21,351 nt of DNA, taken from a virus (Duplodnaviria; Heunggongvirae; Uroviricota; Caudoviricetes). Positions 542 to 21,351 of this stretch are shown piece after piece (positions within the stretch are counted from its first letter, which is position 1; each line of letters begins with the position of its first letter). Below the pieces are notes generated by a model that saw only the letters and a list, made by a program, of their open reading frames with translations, had not been told where the DNA came from and did no database searches. Both the position numbers and the translations under genes were made by a program. The stretch spans positions 1-21,351 of IMG/VR virus record IMGVR_UViG_2861043448_000004. One strand, written 5' to 3'.

Positions 542-1579
542 TTAACGCTTATCCGCCACCAGTTTGAGCGCGTGTTCCAGCACATTAATGTCTGCACCCG
601 CTTTATGGGCATTTTCACTTAAATAACGCCGCCACTGCCGCGCGCCAGGAATACCCTGGAACAAGCCCAACATATGCCGGGTAATATGGCCGAGATACGT
701 CCCCTGGCTGAGTTCACGCTCAATGTACGGATACATGGCGCGCACTACCGCCACTGGATCGGCATCGGTATCCGAGGAACCAAAGATCTCCCGGTCTACC
801 GCCGCCAGAATACCCGGATTCTGATACGCCTCGCGCCCGACCATCACGCCATCCATATGTTGCAGGTGTGCTTTGGCCTCTTCCAGCGACTTGATACCAC
901 CGTTAATCGACATTGTCAGATGCGGAAAGTCACGCTTCAGTTGATACACACGCGGATAATCGAGCGGCGGGATTTCACGGTTTTCTTTCGGGCTTAACCC
1001 CGAAAGCCAGGCTTTACGTGCGTGGATGATAAACATCTCACACTCGCCTTTGCCGGAAACGGTGTTGATGAAATCGCAGAGAAATTCATAGCTGTCCTGG
1101 TCATCGATGCCAATACGCGTTTTCACCGTCACTGGAATCGACACCACATCGCGCATCGCTTTCACGCAGTCGGCAACCAGCTGCGCATTACCCATCAGAC
1201 ACGCACCAAACATGCCGTTCTGCACCCGGTCAGACGGGCAGCCGACATTCAGGTTGATCTCATCATATCCACGCGCTTCTGCCAGCTTCGCACACTGTGC
1301 CAGCGCCGCCGGATCGCTACCGCCGAGTTGCAACGCTACCGGATGTTCTTCTTCACTGTACGCCAGGTAATCACCTTTACCGTGAATAATCGCCCCTGTG
1401 GTCACCATTTCGGTATACAGCAACGTATTGCGGGAAAGCAGACGCAAGAAATAGCGGCAATGTCTGTCCGTCCAGTCGAGCATAGGAGCAATGCTAAACC
1501 GAGAACTCCAGTAAGCGCCAGTTTTTTCAGGCATCACGCTGGTTTGATTAGTTTTCTGTGTTTCAGGATTATCGTGCAT
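542..1579 (-). CDS. dusA: tRNA-dihydrouridine synthase A
   Basis: 345-aa translation is collinear with E. coli DusA over the whole length (TIM-barrel Dus motifs such as [14 protein letters not shown] and [23 protein letters not shown]). The first ~30 residues differ from my recollection of the K-12 sequence, as expected if the prophage supplies a replacement 5' end. Confidence 0.9.
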
Positions 1580-1667
1580 TTTTGAACATTTCAGGCTATT
1601 TTTCTCGCGTTAGGTTCCCGCACAGGTTCCCACGCTTTATGGGAACCCGAAATAACGAGGTCGTGTA

Positions 1668-2765
1668 ATGGCGTACTATAACATAGAGAAACGACTAAAA
1701 TCCGATGGCACACCACGCTATCGCTGTAATGTGATTATCAAAGAAAAAGGTGTTATCACTTACAGGGAAAGCAAAACATTCCCTAAACATGCTCATGCCA
1801 AAACATGGGGCGCACAGAAAGTGATGGAATTAGATCTATATGGCATTCCATCATCAAATGCTGTTGACGGACTTACAGTCCGTGACTTACTACACAAATA
1901 TTTAAATGACCCAAATGCCGGAGGTAAAGCAGGCCGTACTAAAAGATATGTGCTGGAACTGCTTATGGATAGTGACATCTCCGCGATCAAACTATCTGAA
2001 CTGACAGAAAATGACGTAATTGAACATTGCAGGCTAAGAAACAACGCTGGTGCAGGCCCAGCAACAGTCAGCCACGATGTTAGTTATCTTGGCAGTGTTC
2101 TGGATGCGGCAAAACCTGTATACGGAATCAATTACACATCAAACCCGGCGAAAAGCGCTCGTCCATATCTACTTAAACTCGGTTTGATTGGTAAATCAAA
2201 CCGTCGTAATCGTAGACCAGCATCTGATGAACTGAACATGCTCATTGAAGGCCTTCAACAACGATCTACTCATAAATGCTCAAAAATTCCGTTCGTTGAT
2301 ATCCTCAAATTTTCTGTGTGGTCCTGTATGCGAATCGGAGAAGTATGCCGGTTACGATGGGAAGATCTCGACCAGGAACAAAAATCTATACTAGTAAGAG
2401 ACAGGAAAGATCCACGTAAAAAGGAAGGCAACCATATGAAAGTTGCCTTGCTTGGGGAAGCCTGGGATATCGTCCAGCGACAACCCAAAAAATCAGAATT
2501 CATTTTTCCATATAACAGCACTTCTGTTACCGCAGGATTTCAGAGGGTAAGAAGCAAATTAGGTATTAAAGATCTGAGATACCATGATTTGCGTAGAGAA
2601 GGGGCAAGTCGCTTATTTGAGGCTGGTTTTAGTATTGAGGAAGTCGCTCAGGTTACAGGGCATCGTTCATTAAACGTGCTATGGCAGGTATATACCGAAC
2701 TGTATCCGAAATCTTTACATAATCGTTTTGAAGAACTCCAAAGGAGCAGAAATAAGACCTCTTGA
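1668..2765 (+). CDS. int: Phage integrase, tyrosine recombinase (dusA-associated family)
   Basis: 365-aa ORF starting 88 bp upstream of and divergent from the dusA start; C-terminal catalytic region HDLRREGASRLFEAGFSIEEVAQVTGHRSLNVLWQVY carries the tyrosine recombinase H-x-x-R ... H ... Y signature; GAGG Shine-Dalgarno 7 nt upstream of the ATG. Confidence 0.9.
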   Translation: MAYYNIEKRLKSDGTPRYRCNVIIKEKGVITYRESKTFPKHAHAKTWGAQKVMELDLYGIPSSNAVDGLTVRDLLHKYLNDPNAGGKAGRTKRYVLELLMDSDISAIKLSELTENDVIEHCRLRNNAGAGPATVSHDVSYLGSVLDAAKPVYGINYTSNPAKSARPYLLKLGLIGKSNRRNRRPASDELNMLIEGLQQRSTHKCSKIPFVDILKFSVWSCMRIGEVCRLRWEDLDQEQKSILVRDRKDPRKKEGNHMKVALLGEAWDIVQRQPKKSEFIFPYNSTSVTAGFQRVRSKLGIKDLRYHDLRREGASRLFEAGFSIEEVAQVTGHRSLNVLWQVYTELYPKSLHNRFEELQRSRNKTS

Positions 2766-2825: not shown

Positions 2826-3074
2826 ATGCGTATTGAAATCTGCATAGCCAAAGAAAAAATGACTAAAATGCCAACCGGTGCTGTGGATGCGTTAAAGGAA
2901 GAATTAACCCGACGCATCAGTAAACGTTATGACGATGTAGAAGTGATCGTAAAAGCCACCAGCAACGATGGCCTTTCTGTTACGCGCACCGCTGATAAAG
3001 ATTCAGCTAAAACTTTTGTTCAGGAGACTCTGAAAGATACCTGGGAGTCTGCTGACGAGTGGTTTGTTCATTAA
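2826..3074 (+). CDS. DinI-family SOS-response protein (prophage copy)
   Basis: 82-aa translation [11 protein letters not shown]...[11 protein letters not shown] resembles E. coli DinI (MRIEVTIAK...TWESADDWFV) end to end; AGGGGA Shine-Dalgarno 5 nt upstream; preceded by LexA boxes. Confidence 0.85.
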
Positions 3075-3296: not shown

Positions 3297-3848
3297 ATGC
3301 ATGACAATATTTGGTTTACATATAAAGCACGTATCCAAGCGCACCATCGACTAGAATGGCTTGAAAAACACTCTCAATTTATCCTCGTTTGGTATGCTAT
3401 ATTGAGTGCGGTACTTTCAATTGTAACGTTGCGATTTCCAAAGGTTCTAGGAGATAATACAGATGTCGTTGCGGCGATACTTTCAGTGGCTCTACTGGGT
3501 ATTTCTCTGATCGTATCTAACCTAGATTTTCGTGGTCGAGCAATAGCCATGAGAAGGAATTATATTGCACTACAGCGACTCTATTTTGACATTACCACCA
3601 GTCAACAGTTATCTCTTGAACAGAAAGAAAAATATTTTAATTTGCTCAATGAGGTTGAGAATCACCGTGACATAGATGATAAAATTTCAAGGGTAACTCA
3701 AGTTGGACTTAAGACGAGGATCCCCACACAAAAAGAAAAAATAATTGTTATTTTATGGATATTACTTCGAATATTTATTACTGCCGCACTTTATATACTC
3801 CCATTAATATATCTTTGGATTGACTATGACTGCAAGCAGAATTTTTAA
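3297..3848 (+). CDS. Predicted multi-pass inner-membrane protein, partner of the reverse transcriptase
   Basis: 183-aa ORF with AGGA Shine-Dalgarno 6 nt upstream; hydrophobic helices FILVWYAILSAVLSIVTL, VVAAILSVALLGISLIVSNL and C-terminal IIVILWILLRIFITAALYILPLIYLWI; AT-rich codon usage unlike flanking genes; 3' end overlaps the RT start by 23 nt. Confidence 0.7.
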   Translation: MHDNIWFTYKARIQAHHRLEWLEKHSQFILVWYAILSAVLSIVTLRFPKVLGDNTDVVAAILSVALLGISLIVSNLDFRGRAIAMRRNYIALQRLYFDITTSQQLSLEQKEKYFNLLNEVENHRDIDDKISRVTQVGLKTRIPTQKEKIIVILWILLRIFITAALYILPLIYLWIDYDCKQNF

Positions 3849-5196
3849 AAAGTCATTCTCGAAAAAAAATCTTCTAAAAGTATACTCTGAAAAAATCAAA
3901 GAATCAGGAGCGATTGGCATAGATCGGATTCGCCCATCAAAACTTGATTTGACAATAAAAAATGAGATCACTTTCATTTTTGAAAAGGTTAATTCTGGCA
4001 ATTACAAATTTACAGCATATAAAGAAAAATTAATATCTAAAGGCGCTAACTCTACACCCAGACAGATTTCCATACCAACTGCTAGGGACAGAATTACTCT
4101 TAGAGCTCTCTGTGAATGCCTTACGGAAATATATCCTAAGTCCAGATTAAAACTACCACATACAGTAATTGACTCATTGAAAGAAGCATTAAACAACAGT
4201 CTATATGCTGAATATGCAAAAATAGATCTTAAAAGTTTCTATCCTTCAATTGAACATAAATTGATAATTAATGCAATAAAAAATAAAATTAGAAAAAAAG
4301 AAATTAGACAGTTAATAACATCATCATTAATCGTGCCTACTGTAAGTGGAACCACAGGAAGCAAAGGTATCCCTAATAATACCAGAGGAGTACCTCAGGG
4401 ATTAGCGATATCAAACATTTTAGCTGAAATATCACTATCTAATTTCGATGATGAAATCAATAAAATGCATGACATATGGTACATGCGATACGTTGATGAC
4501 ATTCTTATTTTAACACCAAAATATCAAGCAACAAAAATAGCTTCTCATATCATTGATAAGCTTCAATCATTAAATTTAAACCCACATCCATTAAATGAAG
4601 AGAACTCAAAATCCAAAGTAGGCAGTTTGGATGAAAGTTTTAACTTTTTGGGATACCACATAGAAAATCGAGAATTATTGATAAAACATGAGAGCATTCT
4701 TAGATTTGAGTCATCCTTAGCAAAAATTTTTACTGCATATAGGCACGCTCTACTACAAGCTAAAAGTAAGCGTGATAAAGAACGAGCTGTTGCATATTGT
4801 CAGTGGAAACTAAATCTCAGAATTACGGGATGTGTGTTTGAAGGTAAACGATTGGGATGGGTATCGTACTTCTCACAAATAACCTCAACAGCTCAACTTC
4901 GCTCTGTTAATCATACTATCAATAATCTTATCCGCCGATTCGGCCTTTCATCAGAAATAAAACCAAAATCTTTGATTAAAACTTTCTATGAACTCCGCAG
5001 AGGTAGAGCGGAGACTTTTAAATACATACCTAACTTTGACAATCTACATATATCTCAGAAACGAGAACTTGTTTCTATGTGGATAGGTAAAGAGAAGGAA
5101 AAAAAACTTAGCAATAGTGAAATAGAGAGGAAGTTTAAATTTAAAATTGCGAAATCAGTAAAAGAGCTTGAAGAGGATATTTCAGGAATATCATAG
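3826..5196 (+). CDS. Reverse transcriptase (defence-associated, non-retron motif pattern)
   Basis: 456 aa from the ATG at 3826 (track ORF begins at a TTG at 3820). RT motifs are all present: GIDRI, RQISIPTARDRITLRAL, YAEYAKIDLKSFYPSI, GVPQGLAISNILAEISL, YMRYVDDILIL (YVDD catalytic box), FNFLGYHI (FLG-type motif 7 rather than the retron VTG); about 170-aa C-terminal extension; AT-rich. Confidence 0.85.
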   Translation: MTASRIFKKSFSKKNLLKVYSEKIKESGAIGIDRIRPSKLDLTIKNEITFIFEKVNSGNYKFTAYKEKLISKGANSTPRQISIPTARDRITLRALCECLTEIYPKSRLKLPHTVIDSLKEALNNSLYAEYAKIDLKSFYPSIEHKLIINAIKNKIRKKEIRQLITSSLIVPTVSGTTGSKGIPNNTRGVPQGLAISNILAEISLSNFDDEINKMHDIWYMRYVDDILILTPKYQATKIASHIIDKLQSLNLNPHPLNEENSKSKVGSLDESFNFLGYHIENRELLIKHESILRFESSLAKIFTAYRHALLQAKSKRDKERAVAYCQWKLNLRITGCVFEGKRLGWVSYFSQITSTAQLRSVNHTINNLIRRFGLSSEIKPKSLIKTFYELRRGRAETFKYIPNFDNLHISQKRELVSMWIGKEKEKKLSNSEIERKFKFKIAKSVKELEEDISGIS

Positions 5197-11326: not shown

Positions 11327-11354
11327 ACATACTACATACTACATACTACATAAT
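11327..11354. repeat. Tandem heptanucleotide repeat (ACATACT) x3 plus one imperfect unit
   Basis: ACATACT ACATACT ACATACT ACATAAT read directly; spans the Rz stop codon and the upstream region of the 79-aa gene. Confidence 0.85.
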
Positions 11355-13641: not shown

Positions 13642-14460
13642 TCACCCCCTGAATCCTGCCGGGATCTGGCTGTAGTCCACGTTGTCGTAACTGGCTTTGA
13701 AGTACGGGTCCTCGCGTCTGGCTGCAGATACCGCAGGAACTTCCCAGGATTCTTCGAAATGACGATCCGGACCAAAGAACGTGACAGCCTGTTTCACAAA
13801 TTGTGTGCCGCTGTTACCCATCGCAGATACCCAGCCCGCGTAGCGTTTCACACCTTCCAGCATGGTTTCGGGGTTTACCCCCTCATTCAAACGGGCTTTC
13901 CAGGCTTTGAAGGCTGCAGATTTTGAATTGCCACCAGCACGTTTGGGATATACCAGCCATGCCTGCTCAAACTCCGGAGAGTATTCCGGTCGGTTTGAAC
14001 GAACTCGCACGGACTCATCAACTGATGCACCAACAGCTATTGGTTCATTGACTGGTTCTTTGACTGGTTCAAAAGAGTGACTGGTTCTGGGTGAATCTCC
14101 TGCACTACCCCCTGGTGCAACTCCTGCACTACCTGGTGAATTTGCTGCACCAGATAGTGAATTATTTGCACTACCCCCTAGTGAATCTCCTGCACCATCC
14201 AGATGAAGGAGATAGATATTACTTGAGTTACCTTTTTCACCTTTCCGGGTGACTTTTTTTACCAGCCCGGACTCACAAAGGGCCGCAATATGATTCATCA
14301 CAGAACGTTTGCTAATCTCGCACTGGTCAGCAATATGCTGGTAGCTGGGCCAGCACTCACCCTGATCGCTGGCATTATCAGCCAGCTTGATCAGAACCAG
14401 TTTTCGCAATGGATTACCCACTCGAATTTTCATCGCTTTAACCATCAGCTCCATACTCAT
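13642..14460 (-). CDS. Phage replication initiation protein (N-terminal HTH, repeat linker, C-terminal domain)
   Basis: 272 aa; N-terminal LRKLVLIKLADNASDQGECWPSYQHIADQCEISKRSVMNHIAALCESGLVKK is a replication-initiator-type winged HTH; low-complexity Gly/Ser/Ala/Pro linker encoded by DNA direct repeats; gene order matches the lambda O position. Confidence 0.65.
   Translation of the reverse strand: MSMELMVKAMKIRVGNPLRKLVLIKLADNASDQGECWPSYQHIADQCEISKRSVMNHIAALCESGLVKKVTRKGEKGNSSNIYLLHLDGAGDSLGGSANNSLSGAANSPGSAGVAPGGSAGDSPRTSHSFEPVKEPVNEPIAVGASVDESVRVRSNRPEYSPEFEQAWLVYPKRAGGNSKSAAFKAWKARLNEGVNPETMLEGVKRYAGWVSAMGNSGTQFVKQAVTFFGPDRHFEESWEVPAVSAARREDPYFKASYDNVDYSQIPAGFRG
14049..14200. repeat. Direct-repeat arrays inside the replication gene (candidate origin iterons)
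   Basis: Three copies of TGACTGGTTC (14049..14086) then about five imperfect ~22-bp units of GGTGAATCTCCTGCACTACCCCCT type (14090..14200). Confidence 0.5.
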
Positions 14461-16404: not shown

Positions 16405-17079
16405 ATGAAAACAGTCCATGACATCCGGCGGTCTAACGCCAGAAAACTGAGAGATGGTGTTGGCGGGAATTCTTCCTTTGCCACCATGATTGATCGCGAG
16501 CCAACCCAGACCAGCAGGTTTATGGGAGATGGTGCAACTAAAAATATCGGTGACAGCATGGCACGGCACATCGAAAAATGTTTCGACCTGCCTGTCGGAT
16601 GGCTTGATCAAGAACACCAGACAACGAACATCACAAAAAAACCTGACGTTTCAATCACTAACAAACAAATAACGTTAGTCCCTGTCATATCATGGGTACA
16701 GGCCGGAGCATGGAAAGAAGTTGGCTATTCTGAGGTTGATTTGAGCACAGCAGAAACTTATCCCTGCCCTGTACCCTGTGGCGAAATGACTTATATCTTG
16801 CGGGTGATTGGTGATTCAATGATTGATGAGTACCGCCCGGGAGACATGATTTTTGTTGATCCTGAAGTCCCTGCCTGCCACGGTGACGACGTTATTGCAT
16901 TGATGCACGATACAGGCGAAACCACCTTCAAGCGGTTGATAGAAGATGGAACACAGCGTTACCTCAAAGCATTAAACCCAAACTGGCCTGAACCTTACAT
17001 TAAGATCAACGGTAATTGCTCTATAATTGGTACAGTGATTTTCTCAGGAAAACCAAGAAGATACAAAATAAAGGCCTAA
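16405..17079 (+). CDS. CI-like prophage repressor with LexA-type S24 autopeptidase domain
   Basis: 224 aa; N-terminal HTH; Ala-Gly cleavage site in WVQAGAWKE; catalytic Ser in VIGDSMIDEY and Lys in TTFKRLIEDG. Confidence 0.85.
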   Translation: MKTVHDIRRSNARKLRDGVGGNSSFATMIDREPTQTSRFMGDGATKNIGDSMARHIEKCFDLPVGWLDQEHQTTNITKKPDVSITNKQITLVPVISWVQAGAWKEVGYSEVDLSTAETYPCPVPCGEMTYILRVIGDSMIDEYRPGDMIFVDPEVPACHGDDVIALMHDTGETTFKRLIEDGTQRYLKALNPNWPEPYIKINGNCSIIGTVIFSGKPRRYKIKA

Positions 17080-17091
17080 TCAATATTTATA

Positions 17092-17113
17092 ACCTGCTTC
17101 GGCAGGTTTTTTT
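17092..17113 (+). terminator. Intrinsic terminator after the CI gene
   Basis: ACCTGCttcgGCAGGT hairpin followed by TTTTTTT. Confidence 0.65.
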
Positions 17114-17117
17114 ATAC

Positions 17118-17161
17118 TTGACAATGTACCCTTAAGATACATAATGTATCTATAGGATACA
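17118..17161 (+). promoter_or_regulatory. pL-like promoter overlapped by two operator sites
   Basis: TTGACA (17118..17123), CATAAT (17140..17145); operators TGTACCcttaaGATACA (17125..17141) and TGTATCtatagGATACA (17145..17161) share the half-site family seen in the OR region. Confidence 0.5.
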
Positions 17162-17745
17162 TAACACAGGCAAGATTAAACTAAATTTGGTTGTAACACG
17201 GCGTATGGCACATGCGTCGTTAGCGGTCTGGGGACGTTAAAGGGGACAATCCACTCCTTGCTCGGGCAAACAAACCAGGTAGCCGGAATGTGCAAGTCAA
17301 TGATGATGCTGATAAGACGCCTAACCAGCGTGGCGATCCGGTTTGACGCCTGGGAAGAGACCAGGGTGCAACGATGAGGGCATTTATGGAACCGCGACAA
17401 AGTGTGGTGCCGTAACTGGCTAAGTGCTCTCAGCGTTGTGGTAATCCGCGAAATGGCGCGGCGGTAAGTATGGCGGGGTTACTCTTTCCCCGTTGAGGAC
17501 ACCGGATTGTCAGGTTGACCATACGCCTGAGTGACAACCCCACCACAACAGCCACTGCTTTGGCGGTACCAGTTTGTACACTTGCTTCCGGCTGGTACCG
17601 CTCTTTTTACAAAACAGAGAAGAGCATCACCGGACGACGGGCTCATAACCCAATCCATCCGGGCGGCTGCCACCGCAGGTGTTCTTCTCTGTTTTGTGGA
17701 GAAACCAACCGACCTTGCAGGGTCGATATGATGAGGAGCAGCAAA

Positions 17746-20003: not shown

Positions 20004-20273
20004 ATGAATACCTTGTTTTTACTGATGGCTGAATTCAATACCCCAAACATTGAACTCTCAGCAGTTAGTCAAAAATACTTTGGTATGAGTCCAGCCACAG
20101 CAGAAGCAAAAGCAAACGCTTGTAAGTTGCCTGTACCTACATATCGCATCGGTACATCACAAAAAGCAAAACGCTGCATCAACATTCAGGATCTTGCGGA
20201 ATATATTGACAAAAGACGGGAAGAAGGGCGAGCTGAGTGGGAAAAAGTCAGAACGGAAAAAAAATATAACTAA
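20004..20273 (+). CDS. PrtN-family (pyocin activator-like) DNA-binding protein
   Basis: 89 aa; N-terminus MNTLFLLMAEFNTPNIELSAVSQKYFGMS and LPVPTYRIG ... DLAEYIDKRREE match the PrtN family pattern as I recall it. Confidence 0.55.
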   Translation: MNTLFLLMAEFNTPNIELSAVSQKYFGMSPATAEAKANACKLPVPTYRIGTSQKAKRCINIQDLAEYIDKRREEGRAEWEKVRTEKKYN

Positions 20274-20287
20274 ACTAAAACTATGGA

Positions 20288-20315
20288 TAACCCGTATATG
20301 TACGGGTTATTTTTC
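20288..20315 (+). terminator. Candidate intrinsic terminator between convergent genes
   Basis: AACCCGTAtatgTACGGGTT hairpin followed by ATTTTTC; overlaps the stop codon of the minus-strand gene. Confidence 0.45.
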
Positions 20316-20855
20316 TTTATCACTATCTTTTCTTGATTTGAACAATCCACTAACAACGAAACCAACCAAACCAACAATACTAATTGTACTTGTACCTAGT
20401 AATGCAACGATCGCTTCAACTGGAGCCTTTCCTTCATGTGCAATAAGAAACGATGTAAACATTGCGACAACGAATAAGCACCAACACGACATAAACCAAA
20501 CCGTGAATGATGCCATTTTTGTCCGGAGCTCATTGTCTATTTCTTTACCAGTTGCGTCAGCTATCTTATCCCGTACTTGTGATTTGAGCATATCAAGCTG
20601 AGCTTGAAGACTGTCCATTCTGTTCTGCTGCATAAACTCATGCAATGCACCAGTATTAGAACCAAACTCTTCTTCCTCCAGAATAGCCTTATTTTCTGAA
20701 GAAGAATCATCATCGCGTTCATGATTAGACGGCTCAAATGCGGATTCAAAAGCCTGCTCTTGACTGTCAGTAGAGTTTAAGGATGCTTCAGAGCGACCAT
20801 TTTCAACACCTGCGGCCGCTCCGATCAGTTTATAGATATCTGAATTATGAGACAT
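20307..20855 (-). CDS. Small membrane protein with acidic N-terminal region; candidate toxin partner of the Panacea protein
   Basis: 182 aa; N-terminal half acidic and polar with predicted coiled coil (LQAQLDMLKSQVRDKIADATGKEIDNELRTKM); C-terminal two hydrophobic helices (FTVWFMSCWCLFVVAMFTSFLIA and AIVALLGTSTISIVGLVGFVVSGLF); starts 22 bp downstream of the Panacea gene on the same strand. Confidence 0.55.
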   Translation of the reverse strand: MSHNSDIYKLIGAAAGVENGRSEASLNSTDSQEQAFESAFEPSNHERDDDSSSENKAILEEEEFGSNTGALHEFMQQNRMDSLQAQLDMLKSQVRDKIADATGKEIDNELRTKMASFTVWFMSCWCLFVVAMFTSFLIAHEGKAPVEAIVALLGTSTISIVGLVGFVVSGLFKSRKDSDKEK

Positions 20856-20877: not shown

Positions 20878-21351
20878 TCAGAGGCCCTGACATTGCTGTC
20901 GGTTATTCAATAAATCATGATAATAAGCCTTGATCGCATCATTTGAGATGATCGACGAGCCAATACCATTATAAGCTTGTGACCAAGGCGTACCTGGCAT
21001 ATGAGTTAGAGTTGATAACTCAATTCCATTTTTCGAGCCGTAAAACTTATAAACAGCCCCGATAATGCTCTCTGCTTGCGGATCCATAGTAACGATGCCA
21101 CCAAAAGGAGCTACTGCTACATTCGTAACAGGTTTATTCCCATAGTCTTTGAAAGCATCGTACATTCCAGGAATAACTGGACCGTACTTCCACGCGGAGA
21201 CACATTCATTGAGCAAAGGCTTACCTGTTAATGCTAAATAGTAACCATGGGCAATATAAGTAAGCTTCTGCAGTTGCATGTGGGTCAGAGGATTATGATG
21301 TTGGTTTCCCAACGTTATGAATTTATTGGCTATTTGTACCGGACTGTACAT
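20878..21351 (-). CDS. Panacea-domain (DUF4065, SocA-like) protein; candidate antitoxin
   Basis: 157 aa; MQLQKLTYIAHGYYLALTGKPLLNECVSAWKYGPVIPGMYDAFKDYG matches the Panacea core pattern (KLQKLLYyaqG ... pLf ... AW.yGPV ... Y). Start codon is the last three bases of the window, so the upstream region is unseen. Confidence 0.65.
   Translation of the reverse strand: MYSPVQIANKFITLGNQHHNPLTHMQLQKLTYIAHGYYLALTGKPLLNECVSAWKYGPVIPGMYDAFKDYGNKPVTNVAVAPFGGIVTMDPQAESIIGAVYKFYGSKNGIELSTLTHMPGTPWSQAYNGIGSSIISNDAIKAYYHDLLNNRQQCQGL

Follow-up and report, generated by a model that had tools for sequence, protein, structure and literature searches.

The 88-bp interval between the divergent starts of dusA and of an integrase gene, int, holds one short GC-rich word three times (positions 1580-1667 of the window, by which we mean the whole stretch of 21,351 nucleotides analysed here), and this raises the question of which protein reads these repeats. 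A first-pass annotation had placed GGTTCCC, or its inverted form GGGAACC, at three positions between the two genes and proposed that they are arm-type sites of the integrase or regulatory binding sites. The DNA of the window comes from E. coli and matches strain 035152 and others in two pieces at 100% identity. It represents the remnant of a lambdoid E. coli prophage that has inserted into dusA at its 5' end. It carries pspG and dusA, followed by int, a DinI-like gene and a gene for a SLATT protein with a reverse transcriptase. Further on, the decayed prophage displays tail-fibre, portal and terminase remnants, along with lysis, replication and immunity genes and a PrtN-family gene.

The three positions were confirmed exactly: GGTTCCC occupies 1613-1619 and 1625-1631 of the plus strand, and its minus-strand copy lies at 1641-1647. 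The repeat unit itself is longer than the 7-mer first noticed. It spans at least 8 nt and occurs as two direct copies of AGGTTCCC that start 12 bp apart (candidate arm-type site 1, 1612..1619, and site 2, 1624..1631, both on the plus strand), followed by a copy that is inverted with respect to the first two (candidate site 3, GGGTTCCCA on the minus strand, 1640..1648). The stretch that bears them reads ...cgcgttAGGTTCCCgcacAGGTTCCCacgctttatGGGAACCCgaaataacgaggtcgtgtaATG, and an 8-bp inverted repeat without mismatches, GGTTCCCA-N7-TGGGAACC, is made up of copies 2 and 3.

A 7-mer is short, and the simplest account of the triplet would be chance repetition in a short intergenic stretch. The count of GGTTCCC alone is compatible with this account, as 10 of 100 shuffles reach four or more matches. 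The distribution of the copies argues against it. Three of the four matches in the 21.3-kb window are packed in 35 bp, where 1.86 matches would be expected in the whole window, and at least three copies of any 7-mer within 40 nt form only 0.085 clusters per dinucleotide-shuffled window, with 7.5% of the shuffles containing any such cluster. Clustering of the triplet hence exceeds chance expectation. Two empty dusA loci (5.3 kb each) contain zero copies of GGTTCCC. Together with the copies on the second arm, the architecture across species and the invariance at the population level described below, the clustering refutes chance repetition, to which we assign a negligible probability.

The borders of the element emerge from a four-way comparison of attachment sites, in which attB is represented by the empty locus of strain IAI1, attL by the window, attR by strain 035152 and attP by the phage mEp460. 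On the left-hand side, attL and attB agree at 99/100 positions up to the core. To the right of the core, attL up to int equals the mEp460 attP at 188/190 positions and attR equals attB at 186/190. These matches identify TCGAGCAT (1476..1483), the sole block identical in all four sites, as the crossover block. This core codes for Met-Leu-Asp of DusA. In the window it sits in an imperfect dyad, CCAG-TCGAGCAT-AGG (1472-1486), which in attP becomes perfect (CCTAT-CGAGC-ATAGG). The arms of the dyad likely represent the core-type half-sites, and their sequence differs from the arm motif RGGYTCCC. The same core is common to Yersinia phage YeP1 and phage EKP1, and the core of the Morganella phage is TCCAGCAT.

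The resulting hybrid dusA (542..1579, minus strand, 345 codons) appears in the list of open reading frames, matches Pfam Dus with E = 7.8e-105 and is annotated in RefSeq on identical sequence. It is chromosomal from 542 to ~1475, and its last part, 1484..1579 on the minus strand, is a phage-borne replacement 5' end of 32 codons that is present as an identical stretch in the mEp460 attP. The native 5' end has been displaced and survives in strain 035152 as a 105-bp pseudogene at the far prophage end (contig L004, 23911..24015). This pseudogene and the close agreement of attL with attP right of the core support the earlier suggestion that the element replaces the dusA 5' end on integration, as published for the family of dusA-specific integrases (PMC4482086, PMC8409611). 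The comparison with empty dusA loci recommended by the first-pass annotation thus defined both core and junction, and the 5' end in the window is not identical to that of the unoccupied loci. Its remark that the 5' end differs from that of K-12 is true, but the K-12 5' end is ~81% identical, so the signal is weaker than assumed: right of the core, the window matches the K-12-type empty locus at 81/100 positions and is unrelated to the A36-type empty locus.

These two kinds of empty locus deserve a separate remark. Both the A36 type (L003, 2785-2925) and the K-12 type (IAI1; L002, 2785-4478) are found in E. coli, and dusA (331 aa, MPAESHTVYPAYRF...) directly adjoins zur in 1123 of 5426 genomes. 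In the K-12-type locus, ~1.7 kb stand in place of ~140 bp; this segment includes a DUF2713 gene as well as a dusA 5' end with 81% identity to its phage-borne counterpart and with the same element signature (CGTGCATTTT, 'MH.N' start). A 12/13 nucleotide match is present at the would-be int start (E = 0.1). A tblastn search of this locus for a fossil int found nothing, nor was a second copy of the core found in it. The K-12-type 5' end may be the fossil of an older dusA element; alternatively, the phage may have copied such a host.

The window ends ~300 bp before attR, and for this reason a search inside it for the far-end core returned the attL copy only (the end lies ~250-300 bp short of attR). 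The far-end core and the distal sites were located in strain 035152 instead, so that the search of the far prophage end for the duplicated core, suggested earlier, succeeded ~250-300 bp beyond the window. There, gatAGGTTCCCaatAGGCTCCCac is found at L004 23850-23869, 51-62 bp from the core and ~250 bp beyond the window end. It consists of a second pair of the same motif, AGGTTCCC-AAT-AGGCTCCC. Beyond attR, strain 035152 continues with the 105-bp dusA 5' pseudogene, the DUF2713 gene and then zur. The motif is strikingly confined to these places. Within 49.9 kb of strain 035152, each of the four matches to AGG[TC]TCCC falls in an att arm, and 5/7 matches to the looser GG[TC]TCCC in the 24-kb prophage fall inside the att arms.

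The free phage mEp460 has an uninterrupted attP of ~240 bp in which a single core is flanked by all five copies, and the same contiguous attP is present in three IMG/VR metagenomic viral contigs. Counted from the first base of the core TCGAGCAT as 0, the direct sites AGGTTCCC and AGGCTCCC lie at -62 and -51, with an IHF-like site next, at -33. Past the core come the 96-bp copy of the dusA 5' end and a T-tract region, and then the int-proximal arm with direct sites 1 and 2 at +136 and +148, inverted site 3 at +164 and the int start at +192. One motif is hence shared by both arms of attP, away from the crossover core. The IHF-like site, a match to WATCAANNNNTTR with one mismatch on the minus strand, starts exactly at -33 in all five attP, and the sequence around it diverges among them; the number of IHF-consensus matches in any single sequence is at chance level, and the weight of this site lies in its positional conservation across the five attP. 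At the population level, the attL side with int adjoining dusA is present in 739 of 5426 complete E. coli genomes (~14%), and the attR side with the distal sites in 661 E. coli genomes.

This arrangement leads us to read the three copies, with a probability of roughly 0.8, as arm-type sites of the dusA-specific integrase that form the cluster nearer to int. Judged from the sequence, the small N-terminal domain of Int would bind the arm sites, and its core-binding and catalytic domains would hold the core. IHF would bend the DNA, allowing attP to fold into a complex able to recombine with dusA, which offers no more than a bare core. Once integrated, the element would retain the triplet in attL, i.e., in the window, and the distal pair would go to attR. 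Excision would then need both clusters of sites plus RdfN.

Comparison across relatives offers a greater level of detail. The motif is GGTTCCC or GGCTCCC in mEp460 and the window, AGCACCCC in five copies in YeP1, AGGACACC or GGGACACC (GGACACC) in Morganella phage IME1369_02, which has AGCACCCC as one distal copy, and GTACACC in EKP1, whose record is named Elizabethkingia phage. The integrases of YeP1, the Morganella phage and EKP1 are 67-69% identical to that of the window. All three phages display two direct sites, a gap of ~40 bp, the core and a mimic of the dusA 5' end, and their proximal arm holds, immediately ahead of int, a direct pair of sites plus an inverted one. Throughout these four lineages, the layout of two sites, core and three sites is constant and the motif changes in concert at all sites. 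As a side observation, the attP/int/dinI/PrtN module of the EKP1 record (OM284015.1, L169) is near-identical, both in layout and in sequence, to that of a Klebsiella locus (L099), and the record carries a dusA mimic of the enterobacterial type; the host assignment of EKP1 therefore looks doubtful.

In a broader sample of 81 loci from ~80 species, with integrases 52-100% identical to that of the window, a direct pair of GC-rich 8-mers at 11-12 bp spacing is found at most 90 nt upstream of int in 70 loci. The remaining 11 show no clear direct pair. Such pairs are present in 15 of 324 control windows taken inside int (5%) and in one of 81 shuffles. An inverted third copy accompanies the pair in 31 of the 70 pair-bearing loci. 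dusA lies divergent from int in 54 of the 75 loci with enough upstream DNA, and 21 have no adjacent dusA. Two non-dusA loci were inspected, one next to a gene for an SrmB-like DEAD-box helicase (Xenorhabdus; L119, 932-2500) and one next to a gene for an ABC-transporter substrate-binding protein (Raoultella; L136, 829-2500). Both retain the AGCACCCC direct pair, with integrases 52-64% identical to that of the window, indicating that the repeats belong to the integrase module and not to dusA. Within the species, 72 E. coli viral contigs show variation at 10 of 24 positions in spacers, loop or flanks and at 0 of 21 positions inside the sites (Fisher p = 6e-4). Copies on the second arm, concerted change of the motif and the direct pair upstream of int in relatives thus bear out the arm-type reading first offered, and the repeats do occur in other dusA-integrated elements.

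A second class of repeats was noted in loci from Vibrio, Shewanella, Colwellia and Photobacterium (L141, L146-L148, L154-L158). These (T/C)TGAATT(A/G)CG-like units are spaced 10 bp apart, 40-100 nt upstream of int, and lie upstream of the arm pair. They could be sites of RdfN or of an accessory protein. The same loci carry a conserved TAGGAC(A/G)A immediately before the int start, in the place of the enterobacterial inverted third site.

The integrase (1668..2765, plus strand, 365 aa) belongs to the dusA-specific tyrosine integrases, with a Pfam Phage_integrase match at E = 8e-21 and 1538 homologues. Its AlphaFold2 model has a mean pLDDT of 83, and the N-domain alone reaches 88.7. The predicted N-domain, which extends to residue 58, comprises strands at 2-10, 16-26 and 29-38 and a helix at 41-58, with pLDDT about 90. 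It is followed by a predicted linker, with pLDDT < 50 at residues 62-64, a predicted helical core-binding domain at 71-171 (weak Pfam Int_N match) and a predicted catalytic domain at 186-364. In having a beta-beta-beta-alpha domain at its N-terminus, tethered by a flexible linker, the model shares the layout of arm-binding integrases. With the full-length model as query, Foldseek gave Tn1549 integrase (residues 82-397) as the top match, and full-length lambda Int (5j0n, 1z1g, 1z1b), which aligns over ~360 columns, is among the best structural matches.

Searches with the N-domain in isolation yielded no significant match to known arm-binding domains. Foldseek returned nothing for it at E <= 0.001 (best 0.05, with dsRBD-like folds as top matches), and no arm-binding domain of lambda or Tn916 appears among its top 50. 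Pfam Arm-DNA-bind_4 gave sub-threshold matches only (E = 0.011 to 0.19, the best at E 0.011; 3/17 members). Alignment with the lambda N-domain by hhalign is weak (E = 0.007, probability 5%), and a profile search of the PDB sequences with the N-domain yielded nothing relevant.

The link between the motif and this domain is visible in covariation. Among 68 loci, motif distance correlates with N-domain distance at r = 0.61, and the partial correlation given the rest of Int is 0.60 (Mantel, permutation p <= 0.0005). The partial correlation of the motif with the rest of Int is -0.22. Relative to their own variability, residues 23, 29 and 30 (strands 2 and 3) are the most informative about motif class. 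This correlation of motif and N-domain could also come from physical linkage, with the sites located 20-70 bp from the 5' end of int.

Another candidate reader of the repeats is the excision directionality factor RdfN, a member of the PrtN family. Recombination directionality factors often bind direct repeats in att arms, and the window encodes an RdfN homologue by its RefSeq name (20004..20273, plus strand) on the side of attP away from int. In every phage examined (mEp460, YeP1, EKP1 and the Morganella phage), a homologue lies immediately beyond attP as seen from int, and at 47-53% identity the homologues diverge between lineages with different motifs. They do so about as much as Int, so their divergence does not discriminate between the two candidate readers. 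Such factors, as for lambda Xis, P2 Cox and L5 Xis, normally have their sites on a single arm, where these separate the core from the arm-type sites. The repeats studied here are instead distributed over both arms (2 + 3), with the motif at the outer end of each, and the motif tracks the N-domain of Int. If RdfN were the reader, the extra domain of Int, which is of a size suited to binding DNA, would have no target. The position of the motif and this otherwise targetless domain lead us to favour Int, and binding of the repeats by RdfN instead appears improbable, even though RdfN is essential for excision in dusA elements (PMC8409611).

The location of the triplet would also suit a transcriptional operator of divergent dusA and int promoters, bound by a prophage or host regulator and without any role in recombination. 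The triplet sits in the sole non-coding DNA that separates the two divergent genes, its copies 2 and 3 make up a perfect palindrome, a conserved TATTTT stands 9 nt upstream, and the element must provide a promoter for dusA (PMC8409611). An operator without other function would leave unexplained the two copies across the core, ~200 bp off in attP and 22 kb off in the prophage. Moreover, the palindrome is absent from more than half of the relatives, which keep the direct pair, and the sites persist beside neighbours other than dusA. We know of no other universal regulator in dusA elements, of which int is the only universal feature. This last point was made by Farrugia 2015 (PMC4482086). A purely regulatory role is accordingly very unlikely in our judgement.

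The inverted pair could, finally, act as a hairpin in RNA or DNA, such as a structure in the int 5' UTR, a terminator or a cruciform. It would have an 8-bp stem and a 7-nt loop, and the stem arms change together in relatives, to GGTCCCCA/TGGGGACC in locus L087 and to CAGCACCCC/GGGGTGCTG in YeP1. Its folding energy is unremarkable, however (z = -1.17), with 21 of 200 shuffles folding at least as well, and the element has neither a T-run nor a terminator call. Copies 2 and 3 are unequal in some close relatives (GGCTCCC with GGGGACC), the inverted copy is missing in 39/70 loci, and a hairpin would leave site 1 and the two distal sites unexplained. An RNA hairpin was rejected on the basis of folding energy and incomplete conservation, and we give a hairpin of any kind only a slight chance of accounting for the repeats.

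Whether arm-type sites in this position additionally affect transcription is a separate matter. The hexamer TATTTT (1597..1602, plus strand) is, from its conservation, a candidate -10 element of the int promoter. It ends exactly 9 nt before site 1 in 44/71 related loci and forms part of a module conserved across genera, GTGCAT (1574-1579)-N17-TATTTT-N9-site 1, which likewise accompanies target genes other than dusA. T-tracts ~10 bp apart occupy the region between the dusA start and site 1 (1580-1603). A consensus scan of 1400-1800 for sigma-70 promoters and terminators found nothing, and inspection of both strands by hand gave no convincing -35/-10 pair. Of the "attachment and control region" initially proposed, the attachment part thus stands, and the control part, in an interval with no sigma-70 consensus promoter, is a matter of what we infer from conservation and spacing.

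Int occupancy of the triplet may repress int, because the triplet begins ~2 nt after the predicted start of the int transcript; the three sites would then lie at about +3 to +38 of it. We hold it as a tentative, rather doubtful proposal that the triplet doubles as an operator through which Int represses its own gene and ties dusA expression to the recombination state of the prophage. The dusA part of this proposal follows from the origin of the hybrid gene, whose promoter and 5' end come from the same 88-bp interval. If true, a tRNA-modification enzyme of the host would be expressed according to whether Int occupies its arm sites, and thereby in step with prophage recombination. A related case is PAI I of E. 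coli 536, where IHF, bound in the att region, controls the int promoter of the island (PMC7286903). As in PAI I, sites of a recombination protein would overlap the int promoter or leader, where their occupancy can set the level of int; unlike there, the overlap is deduced here from the TATTTT-N9-site 1 geometry alone.

The closest functional model for the whole attachment site is phage lambda, whose attP carries the arm-type sites P1, P2 and P'1-P'3, bound by the N-domain of lambda Int, and the IHF site H'. Like lambda attP, the site described here spans ~240 bp and has five short repeats that are unlike the core and are split 2 + 3 on unequal arms. Adjacent copies stand about one helical turn apart, and an IHF-like site lies between the core and the nearer cluster. 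Int itself, as predicted, likewise has an extra small N-domain on a flexible linker. In contrast to lambda, the site sequence RGGYTCCC is unrelated, the long arm includes a coding stretch of 96 bp by which the target gene is rebuilt, and int, whose leader contains the triplet, points away from attP. The directionality factor also differs, being a PrtN-family protein encoded across attP and not beside int, and the N-domain of Int gave no significant match to the arm-binding domain of lambda Int. The attP is hence functionally a complex attP of the lambda type and, by context and junctions, a dusA-specific integrase element.

The element agrees with the published dusA islands and prophages in its insertion in the dusA 5' end with int divergent from dusA, in the new dusA N-terminus and promoter that it supplies and in semi-conserved attL/attR repeats (PMC4482086, PMC8409611), as well as in the location of RdfN across attP (PMC8409611). 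The papers on dusA integrases define only the 21-bp core repeats (PMC4482086, PMC8409611). The words "arm" and "arm-type" are absent from the text of PMC4482086, PMC8409611 and PMC6070778, and a full-text literature search for dusA with arm-type returned two reviews only. The arm clusters, the IHF-like site and the lineage-specific variants of the sites are therefore additions to the published picture of dusA integrases. Arm sites are mechanistically expected for this class of recombinase, and finding them does not change the view of how the class works.

dusA-specific integrases serve prophages (including Stx-converting ones), islands for resistance or metal tolerance and IncC-mobilisable elements in hundreds of species. 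A full map of attP indicates which DNA a functional mini-element needs and where exactly the borders of prophages and islands lie, and it explains why both ends are conserved. Moreover, the relatives provide at least five site specificities, a natural series in which these are matched with variants of the N-domain (notably at residues 23, 29 and 30) and which could serve to investigate arm recognition or to re-engineer it.

Nearest to the window are mEp460 (NC_019716), Lys8385Vzw, phiSTEC1575-Stx2k, SKA5 and 1720a-02, with integrases 98-99.5% identical (98% for mEp460). In mEp460 and its relatives, the int-proximal arm is identical but for one loop base (acgTtttat vs acgCtttat), and dinI follows int. 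The mEp460 record has no att or arm features annotated. Unlike mEp460, the prophage in the window is decayed, carries other cargo, namely a SLATT and UG17 reverse transcriptase pair, and is cut before attR.

This cargo lies right after int and dinI (3297-5196), where the gene for the SLATT_5 protein (3297..3848) overlaps that for the reverse transcriptase (3826..5196). PADLOC recognized both genes (RTasSLATT, E = 1.5e-56; RT_UG17, E = 1.2e-158), and SLATT with RT_UG17 is a defence-associated reverse transcriptase pair that the prophage carries as cargo. At the opposite end, a hypothetical gene (20307..20855, minus strand) and a Panacea-domain gene (20878..21351, minus strand, cut by the window end) lie between rdfN and attR, a position taken in mEp460 by two different small genes. 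PADLOC gave no match for the hypothetical gene.

Several further repeats were noted elsewhere in the window. Just upstream of the DinI-like gene (2826..3074), the stretch 2778-2815 contains ACTGTAT three times and the palindrome TACTGTATACAAATACAGT, which resembles a LexA box (CTGT-N8-ACAG); a promoter is annotated there in the mEp460 record. In the lysis-gene region, the heptamer CATACTA is repeated ~3.6 times in tandem (11327-11352). Three direct (T)TGACTGGTTC copies at 14047-14090, within a replication-like helix-turn-helix gene (13642..14460, minus strand), are candidate origin iterons. Downstream of the cI-like gene (16405..17079), the stretch 17092-17165 holds a terminator-like hairpin, cctgcttcggcaggttttttt, followed by TTGACA, the perfect palindrome GATACATAATGTATC and then GGATACATAA, a candidate promoter and operator of the operon on the yfdP side.
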